Positions 11,856 through 45,347 of a stretch of DNA of 64,000 bases are shown in pieces. Origin of the DNA: Heterodontus francisci (lineage: Eukaryota). The DNA is taken from assembly GCF_036365525.1 (NCBI RefSeq), contig NC_090379.1:19254792-19318791 (forward strand). The letters are read 5' to 3'. The position numbers were made by a program, and so were the translations under genes. Position 1 is the stretch's first letter; each line of letters opens with the position of its first letter. The notes beneath the pieces were generated by a model. That model searched no databases. It was not told the DNA's origin and saw nothing but the letters and a program-made list of their open reading frames with translations.

Positions 11856-12509
11856 TAATAAAAACAGAAAGTGGTGGAAATACTCAGCAGGTCTGGCAGC
11901 ATCTGTGGAGAGAGAAGCAAAGTTAACATTTCAGGTCTGTGACCTTTCATCAGTACTGGCAAAGGTTAGAAATGTAATAGGTTTTAAGCAAATGAAGCGG
12001 AGGGGGTAAGAGGACACAAGGGAAGGTGTGTGATAGGGCAGAGGGCAGGAGAGATTTAATAACAAAGATGTCATGGGACAAAGGCAAAGGGAATGCTCAT
12101 GGTTGTGGTGAAAGACAAAGCATTAGTCCAGAGAGAGTGTTAATAGCAGAATAATGAACAGCTTTGTCCAAAAGAACAAACATGGAAAAAACAGTTTAGT
12201 TTGTGCTTTTGGACAGAGCTGTTCATTATTCTGCTATTAACACTCTCTCTGGACTAATGCTTTGTCTTTCACCATAACCATTAGCACTCCCTTTGCCTTT
12301 GTCCCATGACATCTTTGTCATTTAATCTCTCCTGCCCTCTGCCCTATCGCTTGCTTTTCCCTTTGTCGTCTTCCCCTGCCACTTCACTTGCTTAAAACCT
12401 ATTAACTCTGCTTCTCTCTCAACAGATGCTGCCAGACCTGCTGAGTATTTCCAGCACTTTCTGTTTTTATTTCAAATTTCCAGCATCTGCAGTATTTCGT
12501 TTTTATTAT
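11856..12509. mobile_element. Fold-back (inverted pseudo-LTR pair) PLE derivative
   Basis: Arms 11856-12181 and 12199-~12470 are reverse complements around a 17-nt spacer. TSD agcaccagtgaatg (11842-11855) and agcaccaatgaacg (12510-12523). Confidence 0.85.
11921..11957 (-). ncRNA. Minimal type I hammerhead ribozyme motif (PLE type)
   Basis: Minus strand: AGTA-CTGATGA-A-AGGTC-ACA-GACCT-GAAA-TGTT-AACT. Confidence 0.6.
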
Positions 12510-13175
12510 AGCACCAATGAACGGTTATGTGCAAGGCCACTGGTTGTCAATGTTCACAGAATGGATGGAATTAATACTGATAAAAATCCTGGAATCCAAC
12601 GTTTTACTCTGAAGTCACCATAAAGCAGTAGCCATGGTTCTACACAATGAGCTCACTGGTGAAGCAAGCATAAGAATGTGGGAAACGACAAGGATTCATG
12701 CAAGCTCAGTGATTCCCTGAATTTCTTATGTCAGCTTAATATCTTAAACATTCCAAATTTTTGCCACTACTATCCTCCCTGGAAGACTGTTCCCTACATT
12801 TATCATTCTAAGAATAAAAACATTTTTTCCTAATACCTGTTTTAAAACTATTTCTTACTAATTTAAAGTTGTGTCCCTCCGGCCATGTTTCTTGGCTGAA
12901 TTTTAAGTAATCTTTTGAGTTAATTTTTTTCTGCACCATTTAATATTTTATCTACCTCAATTAAGTCACCCTGAACTGACTTCTTCTAGACTGTGGAACT
13001 TAAATTTCTCTAATCTTCCTCATAACTTACTGCCTTTACTCTTGCACCCTCTCTAGTGCTTGTTTATATCTGTGTATGTATATAATATATATATTGATAG
13101 ATATAATGTTTATTTTTATTAGAGTATATGATTCATAATCAATTGACATTAAAACCAGCTTGCTTTTTGTTCCAG

Positions 13176-13669
13176 GAAACTAATGAGCTATTAGTGAAAG
13201 AAAAAGTGTCACACTCGAGGCAGCAGAGAAAAAAGATCAATGAGCTTCAAAGGAAAGTGGAGAACCTAGAGAAAGCACTGGGATACATGGCATCTGAGTT
13301 TGAGGCAGAAAAACAGGAGATCAAACGAGAAACTGAAAGAAAAATGGCAACCCACCAGGTAGAGATTGCTAGGCTGCAGGCAGTGATTAACTTGAAAGAC
13401 AAAGAGATGAACCGGGTGAAGAAGCTGGCCAAAAATATCCTGGACCAGCGCACTGAAGTGGAACTGTTCTTCCTGCAAGCCTTAGATGAAGTGAGGCAGC
13501 AGATCTTCCATAGTCAGGCTCACTACAAGCAGGCGGCCCGAATCGCATATCAGAGATTAATGCTGAAGGCACATGCTGGCAAGGAGGATTATCCCAAAAT
13601 CAGGACCTTCAACAAAAGCGAGCATAGCACAAACTGTGTGTACCAAGATATGGAAGAAGCTGATAGATG
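13176..13669 (+). CDS. BBOF1: BBOF1 large internal coding exon
   Basis: Acceptor tttttgttccag, donor gtatgt. Encodes ETNELLVKEK...KDKEMNRVKKLAKNILDQRTEVELFFL...YPKIRTF...HSTN, diagnostic of BBOF1. Confidence 0.96.
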
Positions 13670-15167
13670 GTATGTCAATGTTTTTAAGCCTACTTTACTT
13701 TGCATGACGACACATATAAGGTGATATTGACTATAATCTCAGATTTCCGAGCTATCACTTGAATCTTTTGAAATTCCTGTTGCCATCAGTGATAGAATGG
13801 TAACGTGCACGTGCAATTCCCAACCTTGATTAGATTCAGAAATGCACGCCCTTAATCATGTACAAATCAGCCAGTAAATTTAGGGGATTAAGAAATACAG
13901 TATAAATTGCAAAGCTTCAGAACTTGCTGGTCAATTTACGTCACTTTGTTGTTTGCTTCTCACAAATGGCATCTTGTCCTCAACCTTGTTGGATTTTCAC
14001 ATTAATTCTCTGTTAAACTCACCATGGTAAGTTAAGTCTGGTATTTAACAATGCAAGTTCTTTTTTTAACGATGCAGTAATTGTTTATACAATACCAATC
14101 AACCTGTGGCCCAATTTAAACTGTGGAATATTATTCCTTCAGGTGGTAATGGTTGTCAGATTTTAAAAATGTAAATCTTTAAAAAAAAAGTAATTTTCCT
14201 TTCTGTCTTTATATTTCCTCTTTCAATCTTTCCTTCTGCTTTATTTTTCGTTCTGCACCTGATTTAACTCTAATTCACCTTTCTTCTCCGTCACTCTGCT
14301 GAATCTTTCTCAATTCTTAAAACTCATTGGTTAAGGAGGGACACTGATGATCCCATTGTTCACTGAGTTCCCAGATGCCCTGTTGCCATCGCTATCTCCG
14401 TGTCGGTTTGCACTTCCAGCATGTTAGAGCAGAAACATTTGGAGGTGAAGGGTGCCAAAAAGGGTCGAACTAATAGTATGAGACACACCACTCCAGAAAG
14501 TTCCAGCCCATGATGCTTCTCTAACATAATAAGGAAAGTGTTTTGTTCAAATGAGTCACTGTGGAACATCAGAGAGAATGAGAGTTTCCTGGAGTTCAGT
14601 ATAGTGGATAGGTGGCAATCTGGAAGAGTAGGGAGAGGCAGGAAGTGCAGGAGTCTTCAGATGTGTGCCTCTTTCAAACCGGTACTCAGCATTGGAGATT
14701 GCTGGGAGTGACGACACCTTGAAGGAGTGTAATCCTGACCATGGCAGCAATGGGCAAGGGACTGCACAGGAGGGAACAGCAAAGTACAGAAATGCAATCA
14801 TTGAAGGAGATTTCATTGTTAGAGGGACAGTTAGATGTTTCTGTAACTGTCATTGTGAGTCCCACATGGTGTGTTGCCTCTCTGGTGTCAGGGTAAAGGA
14901 TATCACCGTGAGAGCACAGAATATTCTGCAGAGAGAAGGAGATGAGCCAGAAGTTGTGGTACACATTGGTACTAAAGATATAGCAAGGGCAGGTATTGAG
15001 GTCCTACGGTCAGATTTTCAGGAGCTAGGGAGGATGTTGAAAAGTAGGACCTCGAAGGCAAGCTCTTGATTACTCCCAGTGCATTGTGCTCGTGAGAGTA
15101 GAAATAGGAAAATAGGGAGGATCAATGTGTGGTTTGAGACATGGTGTAGGAGTGAGGGCATCAGATT

Positions 15168-17644: not shown

Positions 17645-18087
17645 TTCTTGGGGCATTGGGTCCAGTTCTGGTGCAGAAGGCATTTATTCAAAAGGGACAG
17701 GTTGCACCTCAACAGGACTGGGACCAAAGTCCTTGCCAGGAGGCTCATTAATGTACTTCGGGACAGTTTAAACTAAATTGGCAGAGGGAGAGGCACCAGC
17801 ATATAGAAATAGAAAAGAGGAATAAGGTGCTAGAGAAGGACATTCTCCATATTAGCTAGGAGCAGACCAAGAGGGACTATGAGGAATACAAGGACAGATT
17901 TAGAATACAAGTACGTTAATGCACAAAGTGTGGTGAATACGGTTGGTGAGCTACAAGCACAAATAGCCATATGCAAATACGATGCAATGGCAATAACGGG
18001 AATGTGGCTTAAGAATGTTGAGGACTGGGCCCTTAATATTCAAGGGTACAAAGTGTTCAGAAAAGATAGGGAAGGAGAAAAGCGATG

Positions 18088-20448
18088 CAGACAAGGGGAA
18101 CCCTGTCGCTGTTCTGGGAGGGAGGGAAAGGGGTGAGGGCAGAAGTGCGGGAAATGGGTCGGACACAGTCGAAGGCCACATCAACCACAATGCGGGAGAA
18201 TCCTTAGTTGAGGAAAAAGGAAGACATATCAGAGGTGCTGTTGTGGAAGGATGCATCAGAACAGATGTGTCGGAGACGGAGAAACTGGTAGAATGGAATG
18301 GAATCCTTACAGGAGGCTGGGTGCGAGGAAATGTAATCAAGGTAGCCTTGGGAGTCAGTGGGCTTATAATAAATATTAGTGGACAGCCTATCCTCAGAGA
18401 TGGAGACAGAGAAGTCTTGGAAGGGAAGGAAAATGTCAGAGATAGAACCTGTGAAGGTGAGACAAGGGTGGAAATTGGAAGCAAAGTTGATGAAATTTTC
18501 CAGTTTGGGACGAGAGCTGGAAGCGGCACCAATACAATCATAAGTGTAACAGAAAAAGTGTTGGGGAAGGGGGCCTGAGTAGGACTGGAACAAGGAATGT
18601 CCAACATACCCCACAAAAAGACAGGCATAACTAGGACCCATACGGGTACCCGTAGCAACCCGTATCTGGAGGAAGTGAGTGGAGTTGAAGGAGAAGTTGT
18701 TCAATGTGAGAACAAGTTCAGCCAGGCGGTGGAGGGTGGTGGTGGATGGGGACTGGTTGGGCCTCTGTTCAAGAAAGTAGTGGAGAGCCCTCAGTCCATC
18801 TTAGTGGCGGGCGGAGGTGTAGAGAGATTGCATGTCCATAGTAAAGAGGAGGAGGTTTGGGCCAGGAAACTGGAAACTGTGGAAATCACGGATGTAGGTA
18901 GGAAGGGACTAGACAAGGGGAGATGAAATAGAATCAGGATAGGAGGAAATAATTTCAGTGGTGCAGGAACAGGCTGAAATGATGGGTCTACCAGGACAGT
19001 CCTGTTTGTGGATTTTGGGAATAAGATAGAAGCGGGCTCTTTGGGGTTGCGGCACAATGAGGTGGGAAGATCTCCAGAGGGGATGAGGTCAGTGACAGTC
19101 CTGGAGACAATGGCAATGTTCGGTGCTGGGGTCATGGTCCAGGGGGAGGTAGGAAGAAGTGTCTGAGAGTTGGCACTCAGCCTCTGCAAGGTAGAGGTCG
19201 GTGCGCCAGACAACAGCACCGCCCTTGCCAGTGGGTTTGATCACAATGTCAGGGTTAGACCTGAGAGAACGGAGTGCAGCAAGTTCAGAGGGAGAAAGGT
19301 TCAAATGAGTGAAGGGGGCAGAGAAATTAAGACAGCTGATGTCATGCCGACAGTTTTCAATGAAAAGATCAAGAGCGGGTAAGAGGCCAGAGGAATGGGT
19401 CCAAGTGGAGGGAGAGAACTGGAGGTGGATGAATGGGTCTGCTAGTTTGGTGGAGGACTCCTGGCCAAAGGAGTGAGCCTCGGGGCGAAGGTGACGGAGG
19501 AAAAGCTCAACATCATGTCGAGCACGAAATTCATTGAGGTGGGGGTGTAAGGGGATAAAATGAGTCCTTTGCTAAGTACATATCGTTCAGTGTCAGAGAG
19601 GGGAAGGTCAGAGGTATTGTGATACACACCAAGGGATGAGATTAGGAGAAGGGCTGGGGTCAGAGGGAAGGGAAGGGGAAGAAAGATCTGGAGGGGCGGT
19701 TGATACCCATGAGTTGCTGGAGCTTGCGTTCCTTGACATTTGAAAGAAAAAGAAAAAGTTTTTTGTTAATGCATCGGATAAGGCAAAGGATGAAATGAAA
19801 TTGTGGTGCAGGACAGCTTTGAGTTAGGGTGAGTCGGTGCTGCTGGAGAGAGAGGTCAAGTGTGTACAGGTGCCGGTGCATGGCACTGAGTGTGGATCAC
19901 AGGATGCGGTGAGAACAGCAGTCTGAGGAACATCGTATGTCTCAAAGATACCTGTAATCCTGGGTGGATTCGAAATGTGAAGGAAACTTCAGTTGGAATC
20001 CACGTGGAATAAGTCGGAGTCGGAGACAGTCGCTGAGGAAAGAAATGTGGCTGTGAAAACTAGTTTTGGCAGAAACCTTATCGAACACCAGGAAGGAAAT
20101 GGAAAGCAATGAAGGTGAGCAAGGTTTTGCTTTCGTACAGAACTGTTCATTATTCTACCATTAGCACTCTCTCTGGACTCATGCTTTGTCTTTCACTGCA
20201 ACTATTTAGTACTCCATTTGCATTCTGCTCCATGACACCTCGTTATTTAATCTCTTTTCCCCCCTCTGTCCTATCACAGTCCTTCCTGGCTTGTTCTTCT
20301 TCCCTCCCCCCTTTCACTTGCTCAAAGATTGTTACAATTTTAAAGTTAACTCTGTTTCTTTCTACATAGATTTTGCCAGACCTGTTTAGTATTTCCGGCA
20401 CTTTCTATTCTCATTTCAGAGTTCCAGCATCCGCAGTATTTTCCTCTT
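18088..20448 (-). mobile_element. Penelope-like element (RT ORF decayed, 3' part missing) with inverted pseudo-LTR at about 20140-20448
   Basis: LSPSELAALRSLRSNPDIVIKPTGKGGAVVW (IKPADKG-like), NNFSFNSTHFLQ..TGTRMGPSYACLFVGY, IYYKPTDS..YLDY.SSHP.SCK.SIP..QFLRLR.ICS. Confidence 0.88.
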
Positions 20449-20511
20449 AGTAAAGAGAAAAGAGAGATGGGATGGCAATACTGATTAGGGAAGACATTGT
20501 AGTGTTGGAAA

Positions 20512-24352: not shown

Positions 24353-24592
24353 TGTCATGAGTTTCTTTGTGTTATCTTAAGCAACACAATGAGATATGTG
24401 GATTCCAGTTCCTTGAAGATCTCTAAAAGGTTTATGAACAGTTAAACTAATACACACAATATAAAGCAAACTATATACAGAAAATTTGTCCAGGATGTTA
24501 CCGTGCAGAGTGACTATGGCTTCTAGTCACATGACTACACCCTGGTACTGAGTTCTTAAAGGGACATCACTCTTAAAAGTGATCATACAACA
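24353..24592. mobile_element. 240-bp solo LTR
   Basis: TGTCATG...CATACAACA termini. 5-bp TSD gagtg/gaatg. Removing it restores the CR1 sequence GGTAAGAGTGATCAT. Confidence 0.75.
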
Positions 24593-27351: not shown

Positions 27352-27475
27352 GCAAGAGGAAAGTACTGCAGATGCTGGAAATAAAAACAAAATGCTAGAA
27401 ATACTCAGTAGGTCTGGCAGCATCCCTGGAGGTAGAAAGAGTGAACGTTTCAGGTCAGTGACCCTTCATCAGAAG
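27352..27475 (-). mobile_element. Short PLE pseudo-LTR insertion with hammerhead motif
   Basis: TSD aggacaaggt (27342-27351, 27476-27485). Minus strand starts CTT-CTGATGA-A-GGGTC-ACT-GACCT-GAAAC-GTT. Confidence 0.8.
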
Positions 27476-27663: not shown

Positions 27664-27765
27664 CATTCATGTCGGAAAAGTGAATATCTCTGACTTAACT
27701 TGGGAGCAGAAAGAGAAAGTCTTACGTCTACTCTTTGCAAAGATGAATGGATTGAAAACAAATAG
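27664..27765 (+). CDS. BBOF1: BBOF1 internal coding exon
   Basis: Acceptor tttttttttag, donor gtatgt. Encodes IHVGKVNISDLTWEQKEKVLRLLFAKMNGLKTN, with the conserved DLTWEQKEKVLRLLFAKMNG. Confidence 0.96.
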
Positions 27766-28848: not shown

Positions 28849-29390
28849 AATCTGTAGTGAGTGGCTCACCTGACTCCCCCGACCCTTTCCACTACATACA
28901 AGGTTCAAGTCAGATGTGTGATGGTCTATGCTCCACTGACCTGAATTGGTGCAGATGCAACAATACTCAAGAAACTCAACATCATACAGGACAAAGCAGT
29001 CCTTTTTTAAAAAATTCGTTCTTGGGATGTGAGCGTCACTGGCAAAGCCAGTATTTATTGCCCATCCCCAATTGCCCTTGAGCAGGTGAGGGTGAGCTGT
29101 TTTCTTGAACTGCTTCAGTCCATTTTGTGTAGGTGCAGCCACAGTGCTCAATCAGCATTTCATCCACCAGCTTAAACAACCACCCTTCTATCAGTGGTGT
29201 ACCAAGGCTGCAATGTCTACTTCCACAGATCAAAGGAGTCATCACAACAATACTCTCCACTACTCCTGATACAATTATCTGACATAACCACCTGAATGTA
29301 AAATTATATTTGTTGCTCCACATTTCATCTGGTGTAAGAAAGGAGGAATATCTACTATATCTACAAGATGTACTGCAGCCACTCCCAAAC

Positions 29391-29922
29391 CTGTGCACAG
29401 TTTTGGTCTCCCTATCTAAGGAAAGATACACTTGAATTGCAGGTGGTACAGCAAATGTTCACTAGATTCATTCCTGGGATGAGAGGCTTGTCCTATGCTG
29501 AGAGGCTGAGTAAGTTGGACGTATACTGTCTGCAATTTAGAAGAATGAGAGGTGATCTCATTGAAAGATACAAGATTCTGAAGGAGCTGGACAGGGTAGA
29601 CAGAGGGTGTTTCACCTGGCTGGGGAATCTAGAACATTGCGGGCACAGTCTTGGGATAAGGGGTCGATCATTTAGGACTGAGATGAGGAGAAATTTCTTC
29701 ACTCACAGGGTTATGAATCTTTGGAATTCTCTACCCCAGAGGATTGTGGATGCTCCATTATTGAGTATATTCAAGGCTTTTTGATCTCTCATGGAGTTAA
29801 GGGATATGGGGAGTGGGCAGGAAACTGGAGTTGAGGCAAAAGATCTGCCATGATCGTATTGATTAGTGGAGCAGGCTCGAGGGGCCAAGTGATCTACTCA
29901 TGCTCCTATTTCTTATGTTCTT
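29391..29922 (+). mobile_element. 5'-truncated CR1 3' end
   Basis: CAQFWSPYLRKD...RRMRGDLIE...RRNFFTHRV. Tail ttcttatgttctt. Confidence 0.88.
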
Positions 29923-31354
29923 AAAACCCTTAAATGACTTTTACCACCTAAAAGAAGGGTAACAGTGCGTGGGAACACCATCACCTCTAAGTTATCCTCC
30001 AAGTCGCACATCATCCAGACTTAGACATATATCGCAGCCGTTCCTTCATAGTCAGTGGGATAAAATCCAGTAACTCCCTACCTAACCCCATTTTAAGAGC
30101 ACCTTTCCCACAAAGGCTGCAGTAGATCAAGAGCGACCCAAACCATCTTCCCTTGACATTCAACGGTATTACCATTGCTGAACCCTCCATCATCAACATC
30201 CTGGGACTCAAAGCCCTTCCATCATCTATAAGGCACAAGTCAGGAGTGTGATGGATTATTCCCCACTTGCCTGGATGAGTGCAGTTCCAACAACTCTCAA
30301 GGAGCTCAATAACATCCAGGACAAAGCAATCTGCTTTATTGGCACCTCATCCACCAGCTTAAACATTCACTCCCTCCACCACAGGTGCACTGTGGCTGGA
30401 GTATGTACCATTTATAAGATACACTGCAGCAACTTGTAGGCTCCTTAGACAGCACCTTCCAAATGTGTGTCCCAGAAGAACAAGGGCAGCAGGCACATAG
30501 GAACACCATCACCTGCAAATTCCCCTCCAAGTCACACACCATCCTGATTTGGAAGTGTATCACTGTTCTTTCACTGTTGCTGGGTCAAAATCCCAGAACT
30601 CCCTAACAGCACTGAGTGCACCTACACCAGATGAACTTCAGCAGCTCAAGAGTTGGCCCACCATCAGCTTATTAAAGGCAATTGGGGATGGGCAATAAAT
30701 GCTGGCCTCACCAGTGACATCCCTTGAATGAATAAAAAAGGCGACAGCTCACCATCTTCTCAAGGGCAACTAGGATGGGCAGTAAATGTTGGCCTTCCCA
30801 GAAATGAACACATTTAAATTTAAAAACAAAGTCACATAAGTTTATAAGTTGACAGCTTTAAAGAGCTAATCTTACTTTCTTAAAACTCCAGCAGACGGAA
30901 ATTTGTAATGGTAAAATAGATCATTTTAAACCAATCCACTAATTCCTCAGATTAAAATATATAATGATAAAATTTCACATATTGATGGTAGACAAATGCA
31001 TTGCTCACTAAACTTAAAGTTTCGATTAGATTTGGGCATATTTTGCCACAGGCGATGTTCAATTGGTGGGAAAATTACTGATCCCAAACAGGAAATTCAT
31101 TGTAATATTACAATGAAGTTGTAATGTGTTGATGCGTACAAAATGCCCCTATGTCTGTAGGTGTAGGTGGCCTTTACTTTGAAAAGAGCCAGAGATAGGG
31201 AATTTACAGTTATATATGGAGCTGGTGACCCAACTATCACTTGTTGTGGTGAGGAGTATACCATTATTGACGAACAAAAGAGAAATCCAAGTAGCACGCT
31301 ATTATAGATTCAGGCAGTGATTTTCAGAACAACCCGAGCTATATCATGTTTAAT

Positions 31355-31980
31355 CAATTTATTGGAGTTCTTTGAAGAGTAACGGGCGCTGTGGATAAAG
31401 GGGAGCCGGTTGACGTACTGTACTTGGATTTCCAGAAGGCATTTGACAAGGTGCCACATAAATGGTTATTGTGCAAGTTAGGAACTCCTGGTACAGTGGG
31501 TAACATATTAGCATGGATAGAAGATTGGCTGGCTGGCAGAAAACAAGAGAGTATGCATAAACGGGTCCTTTTCTGATTGGCAGAATGTTACGAGTGGAGT
31601 CCCGCAGGAGCCTCAACTTTTTACATTTTACATCAATGACTTAGATGAGGGGAGCGATGGCATGGTAGCTAAATTTGCAGATGACACAAAGATAGGTAGG
31701 AAAGTATGTGGTGAAGAGGACATAAGGAGGTTGCAGACCGATATAGATAGATTGAATGAGTGGGCAAAAATCTGGCAGATGAAGTAATATGTGTGAAAAT
31801 GTGAAGTTGTTCACTTTGGCAGGAAGAATAAAAAAGCAGAGTATTTCTTAAATGGGGAACGACTGCAGAATTCCGAGGTACAAAGGGATCTAGGTGTTCT
31901 AGTGCACGAGTCACAAAAGGTTAGTATGCAGTTACAGCAAGTAATAAAGAAGGCTAATGGAATGCTATCCTTTATTACGA
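31355..31980 (+). mobile_element. CR1 RT fragment
   Basis: [17 protein letters not shown] and KFADDTK. Confidence 0.88.
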
Positions 31981-32206
31981 GGGTTAGCCCTTAGCCCCAA
32001 GAATCCACCCCTGAAGGTGACTGGGGCCAGTGTGGTGGGGGGAGTGAAAAGCAGTGGCACCTGGGACTGGCAATATATGTATGAGCCGGCACACACTTGT
32101 AGGAAGCGCTTTCTGTGGTTGCGTACTAGTTGGACATTGCATTAAATGAAACCCTATTCTGTTTATGAAGGCAATTGGATGGTCCATGGGAGCCTTGATG
32201 ACCACA

Positions 32207-34084
32207 TTTTTAAAAAATTCATTTGAGGGATGTGGGCATTGCTGGCTATGCCAGCATTTATTGCCCATCCCTAATGGCCCTTGAGAAGGTGGTGATGAGC
32301 CACCTTCTTGAACCGCTGCAGTCCATATGGGCAAGTGCACCCACAGTGCTGCTATGGAGTTCCAGGATTTTGATCCAGCGACAGTCAAGGAACAGCGGTA
32401 CAGTTCCAAGTCAGGATGGTATGTGGCTTGGAGGTGAACTTACAGATGGTGACGTTCCCATGAAACTGCTGCCCTTGTCCTTCTAGGAGGTAGAGGTCAC
32501 AGGTTTGGAAGGTGCTGTCGATGGAGCCTTGCTGCAGTGTATCTTGTAGATGGTACACATTGCTGCCACTGTGTATTGGTGGTGGAGGGACTGAATGTTT
32601 GTGGATGGGGTGCCAATCAAGCAGACTGCTTTGTCCTGGATAGTGTCGAGCTTCTTGAATGTTGTTCGAGCTGCACCCATCCAAGCAACTGGAGAGTATT
32701 CCATCACACCCCTGACTTGTGCCTTGTAGATGAACAGGCTTTGGGGAGTCAGGAGGTGAGTTACTTGCCGCAGGATTCCAAGCCTGTAACCTGCTCTTGT
32801 AGCCACGGTATTTATATGGCTACTCCAGTTCAGTTTCTGATCAATGGTAGCCCCTAGGATGTTGATGGTGGGGGATTCAGCGATGGTAATGCCATTGAAC
32901 GTCAAGGGGAGATGGATAGATTCTGTCTTGTTTGAGATAATCATTGCCTGGCACTTGTGTGGCGTGAATGTTACTTGCCACTTATCAGCCCAAGCCTGGA
33001 TATTGTGCAGGTCTTGCTGCATTTCTACACTGACTACTTCAATAACTGAGGAGTCGTGAATGGTGCTGAACATTGTGCAATCATCAGCAAACATCTGATC
33101 CTCATGATTGAAGGAAGGTCATTGATGAAGCAGCTGAAGATGGTTGGGCCTAGGACACTACCCTGAGGAACTCCTGCAGTGATGTCCTGGAGCTGAGATG
33201 ATTGATCTCCACAACCATCTTCCTTTGCACTTGGTATGACTCCAACCAGCAGAGTGTTTTTCCCCGATTCCCATTGATTCCAGTTTTGCTAGGGCTCCTT
33301 GATGCCATACTCGGTCAAATGCTACCTTGATGTCAAAGGCAGTCACTCTCACCTCACCTCTTGAGTTCAGCTCTTTTGTCCATGTTTGAACCAAGGCTGT
33401 AACGAGGTCAGGAGTTGAGTGGCCCTAGCCGAACCCAAACTGAGTGTCACTGAGCAGGTAATTGCTAAGCATGTACTGCTTGATAGCACTGTCAATGACA
33501 CCTTCCATCACTTGACTGATGATCAAAAGTAGACTGATGGGACGGTAATTGGCTGGGTTGGATTTGTCCTGCTTTTTGTGTACAGGACATACCTGGGCAA
33601 TTTTTCACATTGCTGGGTGGATGCCAGTGTTGTAGCTGTACTGAAACTGAAGGCCTGCTACCCAATCCGAACCAGACAACGTGTCGCTTTCGGGTCGGGT
33701 TGGGCCCCTCTTCCAGGTCCGGCTTTTGTGTCCAGGTTGGGTCGGGCGGAGTCCAGGTCGGGCTGGACACACATGCTAAGTGCTCTGCTTGTAAGTATCG
33801 AAATTTTAAAAAAAACTTACCTGAGCTGGGAGTCCGGGACATAACAGACTGTGCAATGAGCAAGTGACATCATTATGACATCATCACGCATGCACTGCAG
33901 CTTCCTGCAGGTTCGGTGTCAGGAAGGTAAATAAAGGGATGGTTGGGTTGGGCTCGGGTCCGAGTTCTGGTCAGGTTCTTTTTCTCGACCAGAGCAGGCC
34001 TTTAACTGGAACAGCTTGGCTAGGACAGCCGCAAGTTCTGGAACATAGGTCTTCAGTACTATTGCCAGAATGTTGTCAGGGCCG
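32207..34084 (-). mobile_element. LINE family B, 5' truncated
   Basis: GPDNILAIVLK, FDIKVAFDRVWH, MFADDCT and YKAQVRGVMEYSP. Poly-A-like tail at 32207. Confidence 0.9.
33648..34004. mobile_element. hAT-type MITE
   Basis: TIRs tgaaggcctgct and agcaggccttta. 8-bp TSD actgaaac (33640-33647) and actggaac (34005-34012). TCGGG subterminal repeats. Confidence 0.85.
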
Positions 34085-35768
34085 ACATGCGTGCGGTCAA
34101 TCACACCTTTGACCTGTAGAAATCCCGCAATGGCCCCAAATCCAATGGCCTTCTCTGCCTGACTCTCAAGGTCTTTCCTTTAGTGTACATCGTCACCGAT
34201 CATCCTAAACAGAATATTAGTCGCCTCCTTGATGCAGCGTTGCACTGTGGATTGAGAGACCCCACACATGTTGCCGGTGGATCCCTGGAATGATTCAGAG
34301 GCATAAAAGTTTTGCACCATAGTAATTTTGAGGGCCACAAGCATAGGGTGACCTCCAAAACCCATTGGTTGCAAATTATCATTCAGCAGTGTGCAGAGGT
34401 GACGGCTTCTCTGGACATCCACTGTCGTCTCTGGCAGTTGCACTCAGACATCTGCAAGTATATTATCCGAGTCCTATAGACTCGCTGGTGTATCTGGGCT
34501 CTTCTTGAGCCATAGCTGCCTCTGGGGCCTACATCTGCCGGAGATGCCTCAGCATAGCAAGGGATCTAGCAAAACGGGGTGAATCATACCCATCTCTATC
34601 CTCCTCGTAATTTTGGCTTCGTTCAAAAGGTCAATTACGCCTATCTGGGCAAAGATTTGTGTTAATTTGGTTCTGCAGGATTCCGATACGAGCTCTATGG
34701 TATGGTTTGATGTTGCTTTCTCAACCTTTCAGTAAGTGTGAGCCATCATGACCATACCAATACCATTTGAATTGCCTGCACTCGACCCATCTCCTAAAAA
34801 ACCTATGTAGTTGCTGAGTTCTGCCCCCCCACCCCCAACAGTGTTCACTTTCAGAGTTCTCCCCTTCCCCCCCCCCCACCACCATAACAGTATCCACTTG
34901 CAGAGTTCCAACTTTCCTTCACATCTGCAGATTGAGTTTAGTGGCAATGTCCGATCCTTAAAAAAAAATTCACAGGATAACGCCTAACCTACGCAGGCAC
35001 CAAGGACTCTTGCCATGGTGGTGCCAGCTTTTCAAAGATGGGAAAGTGAAGGCACGAAGGTGCCGCACATCATGCAGAAGATTGCAAACACCTGGTAGGA
35101 TCGCAGCCAATTAGATACAAATGCATGCAAAACAGTAAACTACTATGATCTAAACTATGATCCCGTTGCAACATGGCAGAGATGCTGCCATGGAACCTCA
35201 CTGCCTCAGAGAAAATCGGAAACCAGCAATACAGCGTCAGGTTCCGTGGCGGATAAGTCTATGCCGATTCTCTGGTCCACCTGGCCAACAAACCCGCCTT
35301 CCAAAGGAGCATAAAATCCAGCCCTAACCTAATCAACTGCTTGCTGTGGTAACCTAATCAACTGTCTTGGCACCAACAATACTTTAGCAAATTCGGCATA
35401 ATTCTCCTGCAGCTTCTAGCTTGACACCTCTCATAAGAAATAGGAGGAGTGGGCCATTCAGCCCCTCAAGCCTGCCCCACCATTCAATAAGATCATGGCT
35501 GATCTGCCCCAGACCTTAACTCCTCTTTCGTGCCAGCTCCTCATAACCCTCAACTCCCCAATATTTCAAAAATCTATCTACCTCCTCTTTAAATACTTTC
35601 AGTGATCTAGCCTCCACAACTTTGAGGGTAGAGAATTCCAGACATTCACTACCCTCCGAGAGAAGAAATTTCTTCGCATCTCAGTTTTAAATGAGTGTCC
35701 CCTTATTCTGTAACTGTGTCCCTTAGTTCAGGATTCCCCCACTAGTGGAAACATCTTCTCAACATCTA

Positions 35769-35871
35769 GTTCTGAAAAAGGGTCACTGACCTGAAACGTT
35801 AACTCTGCTTCTCTCTCCACAGATGCTGCCAGACCTGCTGAGTATTTCCAGCATTTCTTGTTTTTATTTCT
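35769..35871 (+). mobile_element. Short PLE pseudo-LTR insertion with mutated hammerhead motif
   Basis: TSD tcaacatcta (35759-35768, 35872-35881). Reads AGTT-CTGAAAA-A-GGGTC-ACT-GACCT-GAAAC-GTT-AACT. Confidence 0.85.
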
Positions 35872-38269
35872 TCAACATCTACCCTGTCAAGCCTCCTCGG
35901 AATCTTGTACATTTCAATAAGATCATCCCTCATTCTTCTAAACTCTAATGAGTAAAGGCCTAACCAGTTTAGCATTTCTTGAAAAGTCAACTCTTTCATC
36001 CCAGGAATCAGCCTAGTGAATCTCTTTTGAACTGCCTCCAATGCCAGTATATCCTTTCTTAAATACGGGGACCAAAACTCTACAGTCCTCCAGGTGCAGT
36101 TTTACCAACACTCTGTGCAGTTGTAACAAGACTTCCCTATTTTTAAACTCCAACCCCCTAGCAATAAAGGCCAAAATTCCATTTGCCTTCTTAATTACTT
36201 GCTGTACCTGCATGTTAACTTTGTGTTTCATGCCCAAGAACACCCAGATCCCTCTGTGCTGCACATTTTTGAAGTCTCTCTCCATTTAAATAATAGTCTG
36301 CCTTTTGATTCTTCCTACCAAAGCGCATGACCTCACACTTTGCTACATTAAACTCCACCTGCCAAGTTTTTGCCCACTCACTCAACCTATCTATATCCCA
36401 TTTGCAGATTCCTCATGTACTCATGACAACATGCCCTTCCACCTATTTTTGTACCGTCAGCAAATTTGGATATATTGCACTCTACCCTTCCTTCAAATCA
36501 TTAATATAGATAGTAAACGATTGAGGCCCTAGGACTGATCCTTGTGGCACTCCACTAGTTACATCCTTCCAACCTGAAAAAGACCCATTAATCCCGATTC
36601 TCTGTCTGCTGTGAGTCAACCAATGCTCAAGCCGTGCTAATACATTACCCCCAATACCGTGAACTCCTATCTTGTGCAATAATCTTTTATGTGGCACCTT
36701 ATCGAATGCCTTCTGGAAATCCAAATACACTACATCTACCGGTTCCTCTTTTATAAACTCTGCTTGTTATATCCTCAAACAACTCTAGCAAATTTGTCAA
36801 ACATGATTTCCCTTTTACAAAACCATGTTGACTCTGATTGATTACGTTAAGCTTTTCTAAATGTCCTGCTATTTCTTCCTTAATAATGGACTCTAGCATT
36901 TTCCCAACGACCGATGTTAGGCTGACAGGCCTATAGTTTCCTGCTTTTTGTCTCCCTCCCTTCTTGAACAGGGAGGTCACATTAGCGGTTTTCCAATCCA
37001 GTGAGTTCTGGAATATTTCGACCCTTGCCTCCACTATCTCTGCAGCCACTTCCTTTAAAACCCTTGGATGTAGGCCATCAGGTCCTGGCGACATGTCTGC
37101 CTTTAGTCCCATTAGTTTGTCAAATACTTTGTCCCTCGTGATAGAGACCAAGATCTTACCTCCCATTAGCTCCTTGCTTATCTAATATCTGTGGGATGTT
37201 TATAGTATCCTCCACCATGAAATATTGGTTTAAATTATCTGCCATTTCCCTGTTCCCTGATATAAGTTCCCCAGTCACATCCTCCAAGGGTTGCACGCTC
37301 ACTTTAGCTATACCTATAGAAGCTCTTGCTGTTTGTTTTTATATTTCTTGCCAATTTACTTTCATAATCAATTTTCTCTTAGTTTTTTAGTCATCTGCTG
37401 CTGGTTCCTAAAAAATTCCTAATTCTCTGGCCTACCACTGGCTTTTGCTTCTTTGTATGTCTTAGTTTTTGATTGGATACTCTCCTTGACTGCCTTTGTT
37501 ATCCACGGTTGGTTCATCCCTCTCATCGAGTCCTTCTTTTTGACCAGCATAAATTTTTGCTGAGTGTTATGAAATATCTGCCTAAATGTCTGCCACTGCT
37601 CATCCACTGACCTTCCCATTAGTCTATTTTCCCAGTCCATTTTAGACAACTCTTTCTTCATATCTCTAATTGCCCTTGTTTAAGTTGAGGACACTGGTTT
37701 GACACCTGAGTTGCTCACCCTCAAACTGAATTTGAAATTCTACCATGTTGTGATTATTACCCCCTAGAGGATCCTTAACTACGATATCTGTTATTAATCC
37801 TACCTCATTACACATTACTAGATCTAAAATAGACTGTTTCCTGGTAGGTTCCAAGTAACAATCCCTGATGCACTCTACAAATTCATCTTCCATGTTACCT
37901 CTGCCAATCTGATTTGTCCGCTCAATATGCAGATTAAAATCACCCATGACAATTGTAGCGCCCTTCTTACATGCCTCCGTTATTTCCCAATTTATACTTT
38001 GTCCTACAGTGACAACTCTTCGGAGGCCTATAGATGGCTCCCACCCGTGACTTCTTCCCCTTGCTATTCCTTATTTCCACCCAAACTGATTCCACATCAC
38101 TGTCTATTGCACCTGTATCACTACTCACCACCGCACTGATACCTTCCTTTATTAATAAAGTTACCCCACCTCCTTTTCATTTTTGCTTATTTTTCCGGAA
38201 CGTCGAATCCCGTTGAATATTGAGTTCCCAGTCTTGGTCACCCTGCAACCACGTCTCTGTAATAGCTAT

Positions 38270-38403
38270 AATAAAAGCAAAATACTGCGGATGCTGGAAA
38301 TCTGAAATAAAAACAAGAAATGCTGGAACCACTCAGCAGGTCTGGCATCTGTGGAAAGAGAAGCAGAGTTAACGTTTCGGGTCAGTGACCCTTCTTCGGA
38401 ACC
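38270..38403 (-). mobile_element. Short PLE pseudo-LTR insertion with hammerhead motif
   Basis: Perfect 15-bp TSD ctctgtaatagctat (38255-38269, 38404-38418). Minus strand GGTT-CCGAAGA-A-GGGTC-ACT-GACCC-GAAAC-GTT-AACT. Confidence 0.88.
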
Positions 38404-39449
38404 CTCTGTAATAGCTATCAAGTCATAATCATTAATTTCTATTTGTGCCGTCAACTCATCTATCTTGTTACAAATGCTGCTGCATTCAGATAAAGAGCCT
38501 TAAGCTTTGACTTTTTGTCATTATTACTCATTCTGGTTCTAATTTCTGCTGCACTCTTCTGCTTATATTTTCTGCCTCTTCCTGCCAAACTTTGATTACC
38601 GTTCGCCTCTTCACTACCCTGCACCTCTGTTCTCGTTTCTTTTTGATTTTTTAAAACTTCCCTTCAATTGAATCCTCGCCCCCCCACTAATTAGTTTAAA
38701 GTCCTATCTACAACCCTAGTTGTACGATTTACCAGGACACTGGTCCCTGCTCGGTTCAAATGGACCCAGTCCCAACGAAATAGCTCTCTCCTTCCCCAGT
38801 ACTGGTGCCAGTGCCCCATGAATTGGAACCCATTTCTTCCACACTAATCTTTGAGCCATGAGTTTATCTCTCTAATCTTATTTGCCCTACGCCAATTTGC
38901 ACGTGGCTCAGGTAATAATCCAGAGATTATTACCTTTGTGGTTCTGCTTTTTAATTTAGCCCCGAGCTGCTCATAGTCCCTCAGCAGAACCTCTTTCCTA
39001 GTCCTACCTATGTCGTTGGTACCTACATGGACCACAACAACTGGATCCTTCCCTTCCCACTCCAAGTTCCTCTCCAGCCAGAAGAGATGTCCTTAACCTT
39101 GGCACCAGGTAGGCAGACAGCCTTCGGGACTCCGTCTTTGCTGCAGAGAGCAGTATCTATTCCCCTAACTATGCTATCCCCTATTACTACTACATTTCTC
39201 TTTTCTCCCCCCACTTGAATGGTGCTCTGAACCACGGTGCTGTGGTCAGTTCGCACATCCTCCCTGCAGCCTGTGCCCCCGTCCACACCGGGAGCAAGAA
39301 CCTGATAACCATTGGATAAGGGCACTGGCTGAGGCTCCTCCAAAGCTAAATTCTGGATCCCCATACCTGCCTCTCCCATAATTCTGTTACTTAGTATTTT
39401 TAAGCAGATAGCATGTTATACATAATTCAATATTCTTGCACACTGTATT

Positions 39450-40465
39450 CTCCACATTTCCACCTACCCCCAATAACCTTCCACCTCCTTGCTTAACAAG
39501 AATGTATCTACGTTTGTCTTAAAAATATTCAAAGACTCTGCTTCCACTGCCTTTTGAGGAAGAGAATTCCAAAGACTCACAACCCTCAAAGAAACAATTT
39601 CTCCTCAACTCCGTCTTAAATGGGTGACCCCTTATTTTTAAACAGTGACCCCTAGTTCTAGATTCTCCCACAAGGGGAAACACCTTTCCACATCCACCCT
39701 GTCAAGACCCCTCAGGATCTTATGTTTCAATCAAGTTGCCTCTTATTCTTCTAAATTCCAGCAGATACAAGCCTAGCCTGTCCAATCTTTCCTCGTAAAA
39801 CAGCCTGCCCATTCCAGGTATTAGTCTAGTAAACCTTCCATGTATTGCCTCCAACGCATTTACATCCTTCCTTAAATAAGGAGACCAGTACTGTACACAA
39901 TACTCCAGATGTGGTCTCACCAATGCCCTGTATAGCTGAAGCATAACCTCCCTACTTTTGTATTCAATTCCCCTCGCGATAAACGATAACATTCTATTAG
40001 CTTTCCTAATTATGTGCTGTACCTGCATACTAACCTTTTGCGATTCATGCACTAGGACACACAGATCCCTCTGCATCTCAGAGCTCTGCAATCTTTCACC
40101 ATTTAGTTAATATGCTTTTTTATTCTTCCTGCCAAAATGGACAATTTCCCACATTATACTCCATTTGCCAGGTCTTTGCCCACTCACTTAACCTATCTAT
40201 ATCCCTTTGTAGCCCCCTATGTCCTCTCTTTCCTACCTATCTTTGTGTCATCAGCAAATTTAGCAACCATACCTTCAGTCCCTTCATCCAAGTCATTTAT
40301 ATAAATTGTAAAAAAGATGAGGCCCCAGCACAGATCCCTGTGGCACGCCACTGGTTACATCTTGCCAACTAGAAAATGACCCATTTATGCATATTCTGTT
40401 TCCTGTTAGCTAGCCAATCTTCCATCCATGCCAACATGTTACCCCCGACATCATGAGCTTTTATT
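39450..40465 (-). mobile_element. CR1 RT/3' fragment
   Basis: [24 protein letters not shown] and LEFRRIRGNLIET. Confidence 0.88.
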
Positions 40466-42050
40466 ATTGCTTTTCTGATCTCAAGTACTGTTTCCTCCAA
40501 TTTTAAAACACCCAGTTCAAACCTCTGCAACAGCCTGTTAGTCATGTGACTAAAACTGGCCCGACCACTTCGGTGTTTTGGGGAAGCAACTACTGGGTCC
40601 CCATTGTTTCAACATTGTCTGTTACTGTGCAAAAATGTCTTCCTAGTCAGGGGCTTGCACTTTTTATGTTTTAATGTGTGCCTCAGTATTGGCAGGTGGG
40701 GGCTTGCCTGACACACACTATTGCGCTAATACCATCATTAATTAACAGAACTACCCCTCCACCTTTTCCTAGCTTCCTGTCCTTCCGAAATGCTATGTAC
40801 CCTTCAATATTCAGGTCCAAATCTATCTATTTATGCAGCTATGTCTCTGTAATGGCTATCAGATCGTACTCATTTATTTCTATTTGTGCTATTTGCTATT
40901 TACGGCAGCCAATCTTTACAGTCTCACTTTTATTTAAAGTGAAACATTATAAGCAGACACCTGCTAACTCAACTACATGCTGGTGTCTCTTTTTATCTCT
41001 TTAAAACTTAACTTTTCAGTTGGCCCAAAAAGGAGGGACCTAAGTGCCCCTAATGGAGGGGGATCACTAATATCTAGTATCAAAAACCAAAAACTTTAAA
41101 AGGAGACTGAATTCAAATTAAAATAACATTCCCAGGGTGATACACTCCAGTCCCCCCTGTGCCCACTGGTCATGGAAGAGTGTCTCTTTATATCTGCTCC
41201 CATGAAACCCAATTAGTGCCCTCCAACTGCATATAACCTAAACACAATTGATATATAATTAACAACAGGAGCGGAAAAGGTAGCAAATTAAAACATAAAA
41301 CATTTCTCACATCTGCCCAAAATGCCTTTTCTAGTGAGGTTAAATCTTTTATTGCTCAGAAATTAAGATATTGCTTCTCTGCCCTTTTCACCAAAAGGTC
41401 ACACATCCTTGTAAAGACCAGGGCAGTATTGGGTGGAATAGTATTAACTGATTGTGAAAGGGGAGTGCACACCGTTATCATCCAGCTCACGGTGAATGGC
41501 AGCCGAAGCTCAAAACTAAAGAAATCTATAAGCATCATTTGATTTCTGTAAGGTAGTCTTGTATGCATAAAATAGACTCCACTTTAATGTGCTTTCTACT
41601 GTATGTATAGGTATGCTGCATAAGGCACAATATAGGTTATGGTTATCTTGGCTATCTTTTGAAACACCATCATTACTCCAGCATAGTCTCTGTAACCACT
41701 CCACTAGTTTAGCAAGCGATACATTTTGTATTGGGACAGAAAAGAAAGAGCGAAGCTGGTGTGGGAAATGGGGGAAAAAAAATCTTCAGTTGGCAGGGGT
41801 GGGATTTTTTTGTGGATTAGGCAGAACATAACCTTTACTCTGCATCCTAACTGCACCTGATACTGAAAGGACTCACACTGAGTTAATTTTCTCAGTAATG
41901 CATTACCAAAAAAAACTTTACTGTTTTAATAAATGATTTTACATTTGCTTTGTAAAGTTCGTATTCAGTAGGATAGCATTTGAAGTTCTGCAGCTAACAA
42001 GTGCATAATCCACAAGTGCTGAATCTCTCCTTTACTTGTATTCCAAATAG

Positions 42051-42128
42051 GAAACAAACTCATCAAATTTTGGTCTCCACAACTCCTTCTGAGAATGTTA
42101 TTACCATAAATGAGCCAGAAGAAGCTAG
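42051..42128 (+). CDS. BBOF1: BBOF1 penultimate coding exon
   Basis: Acceptor tttacttgtattccaaatag, donor gtaaga. 78 nt, phase 2/2, open frame KQTHQILVSTTPSENVITINEPEEA. Protein similarity is weak, so the call rests on phase, size and position. Confidence 0.75.
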
Positions 42129-43661
42129 GTAAGAATCTAAAACATAATAGTGCCTTGCAAGTTATTGTTGGGGATTAAAATTCAGCCATGATGTAATTTA
42201 ATTCTGTATTTTCATGAGCATAGCAATTAAGAGTTACCACACATTATGGGGGATGCAGCAGCACAAATGATTGAAGCTATCCACATGTAGGAGATGGTGG
42301 TGGCCTCAAGATGGTGATTTGCCCAAGCCTGTGTTTCCATCTTTCCCGCACCCAGATGGCCTATTACTTGTACTGGCACCAACAATACTTTAGCAAGTTC
42401 GGCATAATTCTCTTGCAGCTTCTAGCTTGACACTTCTCCCATAATTCTGTTACTTAGTATATCTTAGCAGATAGCAAAGCAGCTGTTCATCTTGAAGGTT
42501 GTTGGGTGCATTACTGGGGACAGGACAGGGGGGAGGGGGTCAGAGAAACCTCCAACTTCCATTTTTTTTTTAAATTGCAAGTATTTCCTCTTTGGTGGTT
42601 TTCCCAAGCTGCAGGGCATTTGTGGTTGAAAGCAGTCCAGATCTGCCAGTACTGCGCAGAAACTAGTATAGGGAGTGGGAAAGGGGAAGAAACTCCTCAT
42701 CTGATTTTATTCTCACCTCACCCCCACTACTGAAGTCGGGAATCAGACGCAGTGTAAATAATAGAAACAAACCCAGAATCCCACCACTCCCTGTCCGTTC
42801 TCCAATATTTATTGCTGGGGAAATTTTAAAGACTGAAAATCAAAAGAACTGGCCAGCATATAAATACAGAAAATGCTGGAGCTTCACAGTAGGCCAGTCA
42901 ACACCCAAGAGAAAAATGTTGGCAACTATTCCTGTGGGGCCCTTTATCAGAACCACTGAGTGACTTGTGTATTCCCAACATTTTTCTTTTTATCTCTATT
43001 TATGCAGTCATAGGGGAGTAGAGGGGTAGTTTAATACATTGTAACTCACTAAAAGATTAGAAATGCATCACATAGAATGTGTGTTGGGTAAATGCTATTT
43101 CCTACTGACTAACCCACATTTTTGATTATTTTCCGATGTACATTACAGTGGGGAATGGACTTCCATGGTGGGAGTGAATCACAACACATGGAAGGTGAAC
43201 CAATACTCCCTACTGGAGTGGAAACATCATGGGTGGCCAGTATAGTACTTTCCTAAAACTATAAGAAATGTTCCTCCCATTTTTAAAACTCTTCCTGCAA
43301 CATCTCAATCCCTCAACCAAAGGTACTCTAAAACCTAGGTCGTAGACAAGAGTTGATCTCCGCTCAGTGCCACTATTGAGAACAAAAGTTCAGCATACAA
43401 AAATGAATGCATTTGCAAATCAAACGAGTAATATATGAACGGAGAACATTTCACCACATTGATAAGCTCTATATATTAGTCTCAAGAAGTTAATGAACAG
43501 ATTCTAGGCAGGGCAGCTGGACAGAAACTTAGCAATTTAGGAAGTTGAGGACTAGGTCTGTTCAGGGTTTCTGCACAATTCTAATGGCTTATTTTTGTTT
43601 CTACTGTTTTGTGTTTCCATCTCATTTCAAAAGTCTGACTTAAACATTATTTTCTTCACAG

Positions 43662-43788
43662 CACTCAAGACGAGAACCACAGTTCCACCTTTATCACCCA
43701 GGCTCCTGTTGAGTCCGAATCAAACCGCATCAGTTTATCAAGTTTTCAGCTGTCAAAAGAAATATTACCAAATATTTTGTTAAAATAA
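43662..43788 (+). CDS. BBOF1: BBOF1 terminal coding exon (to TAA)
   Basis: Acceptor ttttcttcacag. Encodes TQDENHSSTFITQAPVES...EILPNILLK*, with the FITQ and LPxI motifs of the BBOF1 C-terminus. Phase matches the preceding exon. Confidence 0.82.
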
Positions 43789-43859
43789 ATTATATAAGTG
43801 AGCAGCAGTTTAACATTGCATTAGTATCCCAAAATGTGCATTTGGAAAAAGTCATTAAA
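43784..43859 (+). promoter_or_regulatory. Candidate BBOF1 polyadenylation signals
   Basis: AATAAA at 43784-43789 overlaps the stop codon. ATTAAA at 43854-43859 is followed by a T-rich tract near 43885-43910. Confidence 0.45.
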
Positions 43860-44279
43860 AATGCAATTTAAAATGAGCATAAAATTTTATTTCCTGTTTA
43901 TTTAATTTTTATACCTCAAGTGTTAGGGCTTCAAAAAGCATGTAATTTAAATAGACAGGACAGAATATGTTAGAGCACTGATAAGCAAAGGCAGGGGAGT
44001 GGGGAATCTCTTTCATTTTATCACTCCACTGAGTTGGAATCTCTGCTGCACTACTCCAGGAAGAAGCCAAGTAGATGTCTGGTGTATACACTGAAGGGTG
44101 TGAAAAAAAACCACATAGGACAGTGGTGGTGGTCTCCAGTCAGTTTTTAGCAGTCAATTAAGACTGTGAGCAGGCTGTTCACTCCAAAGACACAGGATAT
44201 GAATGGCAATGGAAGAAACCTTGGTGGGAATGCATCAACACTGGAATAGATCCATTCTGTCATGTACTCTTGTTGCCTA

Positions 44280-44760
44280 CTATTTAGAACTCCAGCATCT
44301 TCACTGAAGCCAATGATTATGCGAAATCAGCTCCTCTGGTCTGGACACTGCATCCACATGCCAAATAATAGGCTTTTGAAGCAGATCCTCTTCTCACAAC
44401 TTAAGGACCCGATCTCATGGAGGACAGAGAAAATGTTTTAAGGACACTCTGAAGACCTCACTGAAAGGGGACAAATTGATATCAGGGCGTAGGAGGAACT
44501 TGCCACAAACCCCATCATGTGGCACTGCCTCATCTAACAAGCTGCAGCAGTCAGAAACTGACCACATAAACTCTGCTGTGGAGAAGAGATGCAAGTGGAA
44601 GGAGAGCAGAACCCTGGCTTGAGAACCCCCCACTTGCTCAAGGCAACTATTGCCCTCTCTGTCCAAAGACCTGTAGCTCTAGCATTGGCCTGTTGAGTCC
44701 CTGAGGACACACAAATCACAAATGCCTGGCAGATAGCATCCTCATTTTGAGGGACTGACA
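44280..44760 (+). mobile_element. Old RTE-clade LINE 3' fragment
   Basis: QILFSQLK..HGGQRKCFKDTLKTSLK, typical of an RTE C-terminus. Confidence 0.6.
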
Positions 44761-45179
44761 ACAACCACATAGATGCTACAACTTGAAAGCCTTTTCCATT
44801 GAAGTCCTGCACCTATGTCTGCTAGTAATGTCAGCAAAAGGGAGCTGAGCCAAAAAATCTCAGCACTACATGTCTTAAATGTTTAATTTGTGTTCTAAGC
44901 TCTTTGAAGAAACAAAGATTGACTCATCTACCAGTTCCAGTTCAGTGCTACTCGGGCTAGAGGAAAAAATAAATTTAAACAAATCTACGAGCATTAAAAA
45001 AAACCTATTAAACCTCATGTCAAGGTAGATCGTCTTAGATACTAACTCTTAAACAGTTCATAATTAGCAGATCCCAGAAACATTATAGTCTATATCTCAA
45101 AACTCATGTTAATTCTCTTATAGGTGTAGAATACAGTTTGACTGAGGTGGGGAGAAAGAGGGGAGCGTATTAAGCTACA

Positions 45180-45347
45180 AAAAACAGATTAACATTTCAG
45201 GTCAATGACCCTTCATCAGATCAATTCTGAAGGGGCATTGACCTGAAATGTTTTTCTCTCTCCACTCAGCTGTCAGACCTGCTGAGTATTTCTGGCATTT
45301 TCTACTTTTATTTCATATTTCCAGTATCTGTAGTATTTTGCTTCCCA
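45180..45347. mobile_element. Short fold-back PLE derivative with two head-to-head hammerhead-like motifs
   Basis: aacatttcaggtcaatgacccttcatcag-atcaatt-ctgaaggggcattgacctgaaatgtt. Approximate TSD tattaagctaca / tattaagattaca. Confidence 0.7.

Follow-up and report, generated by a model that had tools for sequence, protein, structure and literature searches.

We analysed a 64,000-nucleotide stretch of the genome of the horn shark Heterodontus francisci (contig NC_090379.1, positions 19,254,792 to 19,318,791, forward strand; the whole stretch is called the window below), in which an initial annotation had pointed to five small hammerhead-ribozyme motifs. Judging from sequence comparison, the five are very probably mutated minimal type I hammerheads from the pseudo-long terminal repeat (pLTR) of a high-copy shark Neptune-type Penelope-like retroelement (PLE), likely inserted as short end-fragments by the reverse transcriptase (RT) of the element and probably inactive. 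The motifs form the 5' head of a single repeat of about 100-135 bp. A partner copy of this repeat is fused to the remnant of a PLE open reading frame (ORF), and relatives of that ORF carry the motif after it, both of which support the PLE-type minimal type I hammerhead that the annotation had proposed.

Structure and condition of the five motifs

All five motifs were recovered at the positions and on the strands first described, and are labelled A (11921-11957, -), B (27440-27474, -), C (35768-35804, +), D (38367-38403, -) and E (45187-45222, -). The CUGANGA and GAAA core boxes, in type I order around stem II, are intact in A, B and E, and the nucleotide left unpaired after position 9 and before 10.1 is an A in all five. 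Stem II is paired in 5/5 motifs. Its 10.1-11.1 pair is kept throughout, as G-C only in D and as A-U (A) or G-U (B, C and E) in the other four, and its loops read ACA, ACU, ACU, ACU and AUU in the order A to E, all in agreement with the first description. The ACGU palindrome said to stand in place of stem III holds in part, being intact in three of the five copies (CG at 15.2-16.2, no stem III) and replaced by AUGU in A and E. Stem I has 4-6 bp in C and D and is individually broken in A, B and E. The remark that each copy deviates at least once from the consensus was borne out: A keeps its core (CUGAUGA...GAAA), and carries C15.2>U and also U2.1>A, which disrupts the first pair of stem I; B also keeps its core, with stem I broken by A1.1>C and its 5' strand clipped; C carries the core mutation G8>A; D has U4>C in the core, together with its G10.1-C11.1 pair; and E, with its core intact, carries C15.2>U and has lost the second pair of stem I. 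The role of G8 in hammerheads is treated in parts of PMC6155905 and PMC11167929.

The annotation had suggested a search with a minimal-hammerhead descriptor. In its strict form this matched neither the window nor any of 100 shuffles, so that no copy passed; allowing one core mismatch gave two matches, C and D. The bare core pattern lies near chance (8 window matches vs 5.4 expected; 18 of 100 shuffles reach 8), and an Rfam search of the window returned no hammerhead match up to E 5. GUU, which precedes the predicted cut, is a weak cleavage triplet.

One repeat family with 11 fragments in the window

The five loci are real, but they are copies of one repeat and not independent motifs. A-D match one another by blastn at E 1e-21 to 1e-35, with 81-92 of ~100 letters identical pairwise, and because of this common origin the pairing shared within the window partly reflects descent. 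The count of five was also incomplete: with a profile built from five window copies we found 11 repeat fragments, six of which had been overlooked (Table 1). A/G, E/F and I/J are head-to-head inverted pairs, and B, C and D stand alone as insertions. With one mismatch allowed, the best duplicated target sites abutting B, C and D measure 12, 10 and 17 nt, respectively, against 9 and 8 nt at A and E. Sequence upstream of the hammerhead is shared only by A, G and H, which have in common an extra 200-230 nt of pyrimidine-rich 3' untranslated region (UTR); against that of A, G is 89.7% identical over 204 nt and H is 77% identical. The pLTR-type inversions (A/G, E/F, I/J and H with the ORF) and the duplications at B, C and D fit insertion by an endonuclease-bearing PLE.

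Some smaller features of the copies were also noted. Copies C and D sit inside repeats resembling long interspersed nuclear elements (LINEs). In G and H, the deletions that removed the hammerhead (sites 12402 and 20342) have 3' ends that lie at most a few bases from the predicted cut, which microhomology explains equally well. The tail downstream of the hammerheads (e.g. 35800-35820 and 38270-38366) has pyrimidine tracts followed by CAG and resembles a splice acceptor, so that the tails of sense copies could serve as cryptic acceptors within the introns of the surrounding BBOF1-like gene. Rfam microRNA matches at 12139-12241 were dismissed, since they scored below the gathering threshold and correspond to the fold-back centre of A/G. 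When public collections were searched with the repeat-tail pattern, metagenome and viral contigs gave 0 loci and genome contigs gave one match, an unrelated bacterial sequence without the motif.

Table 1. Repeat copies, ORF remnant and host gene matches in the window
Feature	Position	Strand	Description
Copies I and J	386..586	.	Old inverted pair (I, 386-461, -; J, 490-586, +); degenerate hammerheads
BBOF1-like gene exon matches	2428-2532, 4508-4675, ~13200-13670	+	Protein alignment
Copy A, left arm	11854..12190	-	Inverted head-to-head insertion: ~230 nt pyrimidine-rich 3' UTR, hammerhead, 3'-shortened tail
A/G fold-back centre	12140..12241	.	Inverted-repeat structure of the A/G insertion
Copy G	12190..12500	+	Right arm of the A/G insertion; hammerhead deleted, UTR and tail retained
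PLE ORF remnant	18090..20121	-	Broken, probably Neptune-type; N-terminal region and reverse transcriptase; stops, frameshifts; ends before the GIY-YIG domain
Copy H	20122..20447	+	Inverted terminal repeat fused to the ORF 5' end; hammerhead deleted
Copy B	27354..27474	-	~121-bp insertion; 10-12-bp target-site duplication
BBOF1-like exon matches	27668-27763 (other isoform), 42052-42126, 43660-43785	+	Protein alignment
Copy C	35768..35871	+	~103-bp insertion; 10-bp target-site duplication
Copy D	38270..38403	-	134-bp insertion; exact 15-bp target-site duplication
Copy K	42859..42953	-	Old, degenerate; also begins at the hammerhead edge
Copy E	45182..45222	-	Short inverted arm: hammerhead and ~10 nt
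Copy F	45223..45343	+	Full-tail partner of E; 3-nt core deletion

A probable Neptune-type ORF joined to the repeat

Copy H is joined, in inverted orientation, to the 5' end of the ORF remnant (20121-18090, -). The search for homologues of this ORF retained 180 proteins at E 0.001 from 806 candidates, and 120 of them were listed. The remnant aligns with the shark protein P0005 at 58.8% identity over 505 aligned residues (E 4e-176), and, measured against full-length homologues, it begins close to the N-terminus and extends across the RT; the best named homologues among the matches listed are shark and ray proteins with 60-68% identity. Homologues match RVT_1 and GIY-YIG, with the GIY-YIG domain found in two of the five shark or ray homologues tested. 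A CX2-5CxxC linker, which is tied to the Neptune clade (PMC8557442), is present in 77/77 of the listed homologues having the YIGxT motif. Pfam searches with the ORF pieces of the window gave no match for the two PLE pieces and weak RVT_1 matches only on two other, LINE-like fragments. The shark PLE protein P0114 continues, read in the sense direction, as a peptide that would fit the hammerhead motif. Standard PLE anatomy includes both head-to-head junctions and a 5'-truncated, inverted copy next to the ORF (PMC8557442, PMC3846280).

Support for the fold from related elements

Out of 301 confirmed ORF relatives in metagenome contigs we retrieved 80, mapped the ORF end in 35, and kept the 33 in which at least 150 nt follow it. 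Searching for the core only, with pairing not required, gave a match in 18/33 relatives on the sense strand, 63-128 nt past the ORF end; the control counts were 0/33 on the antisense strand and 1/33 inside the ORF. In these motifs, stem I pairs 1-3 are paired in 51/54 cells, compared with a shuffled mean of 29 and maximum of 42 in 5,000 permutations, numbers that are not probabilities because the relatives are partly kin. An alignment of 16 of the 18 motif-bearing relatives (leaving out L003, a duplicate, and L042, a deletion) pairs in 87.5% of cells, with two-sided changes in 6/8 pairs and a covariation of 0.615 vs 0.240 when shuffled and at most 0.127 when slid. With a covariance model built from these 16 non-shark motifs, the five loci outrank everything else in the window (E roughly 1e-4 to 9e-3, against 0.82 for the next match). 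As both the model and the covariation come from outside the shark family, they argue that the motif is a PLE minimal hammerhead. Stem covariation, whose absence from a genome-wide alignment the annotation would have taken to refute its reading, was found across related lineages, in stem I. The extra unpaired base before stem II is an A in 16 of the 18 relatives, and the GUU triplet occurs in three of them.

Two further observations concern the variety of these motifs. The U4>C variant (CCGA) of copy D (38399-38393, -) recurs in two non-shark relatives (L031:2386-2429 and L034:2729-2772), and an inverted second hammerhead occurs in related metagenome elements, upstream of the ORF at L002:1087 (-) and downstream of it at L037:4593 (-).

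Family-wide letters and copy starts in read data

Four runs, two of contigs (X1 and X5) and two of raw reads (X22 and X23), were mapped to one arm of copy A at 80% likeness. Matches to the family numbered 83,766 contigs in X1, 6,798 contigs in X5, 60,162 of 11.99 million reads (0.5%) in X22 and 10,601 reads in X23. The density of relics is 11 fragments per 64 kb in the window and, by tail depth in X22, roughly one copy of the tail for every 39 kb of sequenced bases, X22 being a single capture library. Where A deviates, the majority letters of the family restore the consensus (97% at 11954, 76% at 11928 and 65% at 11938). With the pairing letter in 97% of family reads at 11954, the stem I of A is therefore restored at the family level; C15.2 is found in 76% of 30,726 reads and G at 10.1 in 55% of the family by read pile-up. 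U4>C is a subfamily trait, with 2,331 and 398 reads carrying the corresponding loose end.

The 5' starts of most short copies coincide with the outer 5' edge of the ribozyme and not with the cut site: B, C, D, E, F and K start within a few nucleotides of the stem I 5' strand, and J starts nearby. In the read data, loose ends pile at 11953 in all four runs and at 11948 in both raw-read runs, among the most numerous, and each continues with a few family letters before unrelated sequence; inverted joints converge on 11953. The depth of X22 drops by 45% over 11945-11960 (23,790 to 12,994), compared with 23% over 11928-11945 and 24% over 11960-11978. Private mismatches of copy A at 11954 and 11948 collapse nearby ends onto one position. 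Since these mismatches sharpen the piles and a majority of the reads at 11945 extend upstream, we regard this edge as a hot spot and not as a fixed end. Loose ends at 11916 (725 contigs in X1 and 61 in X5) match the family only to ~11924, the start of the predicted 3' product. This pile is ambiguous, as private mismatches of A at 11917 and 11920 collapse about 10 positions onto 11916 and the inverted joints spread across 11902-11916; neither raw-read run has this position among its six listed loose-end sites.

Two candidate signals at these edges were set aside. The terminus of one X5 contig is at 11925, immediately before the predicted cut; it was not used because RNA ends do not show in contigs and X5 is only presumed to be RNA. 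Copy A has branch-point-like and CAG-like sequence at the edge of stem I, where a splice-acceptor arrangement has been described for Penelope of Drosophila virilis (part of PMC4209133); a 3' splice site there was not supported, with AG at that place in 0/18 relatives and no matching joint among the joints listed. Apart from these, a 68-bp head-to-tail joint of the tail without the hammerhead (11856-11923) occurs in 1,688 reads of X22 with about 251 starts, in two X1 contigs and in no X23 read, and is possibly a satellite born from the repeat. A fold-back joint on the AACGTT palindrome at 11927 (51 reads in X22 and six in X23) is either a genomic inversion or a library artefact.

Host gene context

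A, B, C, D, G, H and K are intronic in the BBOF1-like gene, and E/F lie 1.4 kb beyond its last coding exon. The exon at 13236-13667 is 100% identical to a BBOF1-like protein of the horn shark. Relative to this gene (+), the core is intact in 0/4 recent sense copies (C, F, G and H) and in 3/4 antisense copies (A, B, D and E), which gives a one-sided Fisher p of 0.071, or 0.014 if U4>C is counted as intact (antisense 4/4), in a post hoc comparison on a tiny sample in which E/F stand past the last coding exon.

Proposed origin and alternative explanations

In the proposed origin, the parent element would carry two hammerheads on a tandem transcript, or one aided by the element protein; the ACGU palindromes would pair into a shared stem III, and cleavage after GUU would free a unit-length RNA. 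An endonuclease nick, followed by reverse transcription beginning at the 3' tail, would next produce mainly short stubs, carrying target-site duplications or, sometimes, an inverted partner, and the solo copies of the window would decay neutrally. We infer the cleavage after GUU and the dimer mechanism from the literature, where, in the parts of the sources consulted, dimers have low activity and monomers none (Cervera and de la Pena 2014, PMC4209133), and the anole element PAc cleaves only with its protein (PMC11167929). The same-strand partners of the solo copies lie 6.8-15.5 kb away. The window copies themselves are most likely inert, since they are damaged, have no near same-strand partner and present no intact core on the host sense strand.

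Several points weigh against this origin. In ViennaRNA, the double-hammerhead homodimer (C or D) lies 1.9-3.3 kcal/mol above two monomers and 11-12 kcal/mol above a strand-swapped duplex, predicted energies that are in line with weak or assisted activity. As reported in part of PMC11167929, cleavage by the anole hammerhead is dispensable for insertion in vitro and no RNA-seq ends fall at the cut site. The G10.1-C11.1 pair, called highly conserved in the portion of Cervera 2014 available (PMC4209133), is kept by 14/16 relatives, whereas most window copies have U at 11.1. The window is without an intact full element of the shark family (ORF and 3' hammerhead), and copy H, the one joined to the ORF, is without a hammerhead, so the link to the ORF runs via shared UTR and tail sequence. 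No core match was found after the ORF in 15/33 related loci, and several of the partly kin relatives are near-duplicates, which inflates the shuffle test.

The alternative to be taken most seriously, possible though clearly less likely, is that the short copies belong to a discrete non-autonomous element like a short interspersed nuclear element (SINE), whose RNA begins at the 5' edge of the hammerhead by internal start or processing and is mobilised in trans by the Neptune protein. The starts near stem I of B, C, D, E, F and K, with J near it, would fit this, as would the loose ends at 11953 and 11948, the inverted joints at 11953 and the depth drop in X22. Yet an RT stop at stem I, or a fold-back there, would yield the same pattern, upstream sequence continues in more than 50% of the reads covering 11945, neighbouring ends are merged by the private mismatches of A, and the 3' ends vary (103-134 bp). 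A bolder combination, in which the RNA of a discrete 100-135-bp mini-retroelement begins on the first hammerhead bases and ribozyme activity in shark cells suffices for intact sense-strand intron copies to be purged, appears doubtful. The hot spot at the 5' edge and the possible sense-strand depletion of intact cores are nevertheless leads worth keeping.

The remaining alternatives fare worse. That the family is a retrozyme without LTRs, whose hammerhead units, arrayed in tandem, are cleaved into monomers that circularise and insert again, is improbable: a few head-to-tail joints of hammerhead and tail do occur (11953 back to 11857, six X1 contigs), and a 2026 preprint, seen in part, has retrozymes in one chondrichthyan genome, derived from PLE pLTRs (bioRxiv 10.64898/2026.07.22.740005), but the 64-kb window holds no tandem copies, copies start neither at the cut site nor at permuted positions, the motif is minimal and shows no trace of the canonical loop 1-loop 2 type (part of PMC7229834), and the repeat is joined to an ORF. 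Domestication of at least one copy for processing of the BBOF1 transcript would suit the location of the copies within or just past the gene, and the A/G inverted repeat could make long double-stranded RNA in the pre-mRNA; still, with a dead or deleted core in all the recent sense copies C, F, G and H, intact cores antisense and private damage in each copy, this idea is highly unlikely. Equally remote is a chance hairpin spread by the repeat, in keeping with a core pattern at chance level, the lack of an Rfam match and the lack of an intact copy. This last reading is largely refuted by the strand- and position-specific motif after the ORF in 18/33 relatives, by their compensatory stem I changes and by the independent covariance model that picks the five loci.

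Comparison with known systems

The architecture and the dispersed single copies were already described by Cervera and de la Pena 2014 (PMC4209133), and the differences are minor as far as the available portion of that paper goes. The shark motifs share with the minimal hammerheads of PLEs the type I order, the CUGANGA and GAAA boxes, one unpaired base separating 9 from 10.1, a palindrome at 15.2-16.2 without a stem III, a short stem I and the location in the pLTR, as well as the occurrence mostly as dispersed single copies from truncated elements and as opposite-strand pairs. They differ in having mostly G-U or A-U at 10.1-11.1 instead of G-C, in the GUU triplet and in the U4>C subfamily. Such hammerheads are reported there in Neptune, Poseidon and Xena elements of fishes; the main-text portion names no cartilaginous fish, and the supplements may list shark examples. 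A literature search of partial coverage, with repeat databases outside its scope, found no publication on this shark family.

The likeness to the Neptune clade, as far as described in parts of PMC8557442 and PMC3846280, lies in the RT with C-terminal GIY-YIG and CX2-5CxxC linker of the closest homologues, in the inverted 5'-truncated copy beside the ORF start and in the head-to-head inverted junctions. Target-site duplications are 8-10 bp in rotifers and 10-15 bp in the shark window; the window ORF, however, is broken and ends before the linker, and the shark copy number is far higher than in rotifers. The Poseidon element PAc of the green anole is likewise a vertebrate PLE with a minimal hammerhead in its pLTR, and a change of its G8, the base mutated in copy C (G8>A), abolishes cleavage. 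The ORF of PAc starts at stem II, whereas relatives of the shark ORF have the motif 63-128 nt past the ORF end (part of PMC11167929). Non-LTR retrozymes share the type I hammerhead, the relation to PLEs, the non-coding nature and the high copy number, but they form tandem arrays with mostly canonical hammerheads and circular RNA, whereas the shark copies lie scattered and have target-site duplications or inverted partners (parts of PMC7229834 and bioRxiv 10.64898/2026.07.22.740005). Head-to-tail tandem hammerhead units were absent from the window and rare elsewhere (six contigs).

The family adds a shark Neptune-type member to the class described in 2014. The role of PLE hammerheads is called unclear in part of PMC8557442, and the size of the family makes cheap genome-wide tests possible, of copy starts relative to the ribozyme and of the depletion of intact cores on the sense strand of introns.

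Other repeats in the window

A second family consists of six ~330-bp repeats, 74-92% identical, at 1186-1531, 3861-4209, 5111-5446, 45913-46261, 52483-52773 and 55000-55337, and is likely a SINE. Dense fragmented LINE-like repeats, two pieces of which gave the weak RVT_1 matches, occupy 6300-11660, 29390-33600, 35430-40900, 47170-51230 and 55340-62560.

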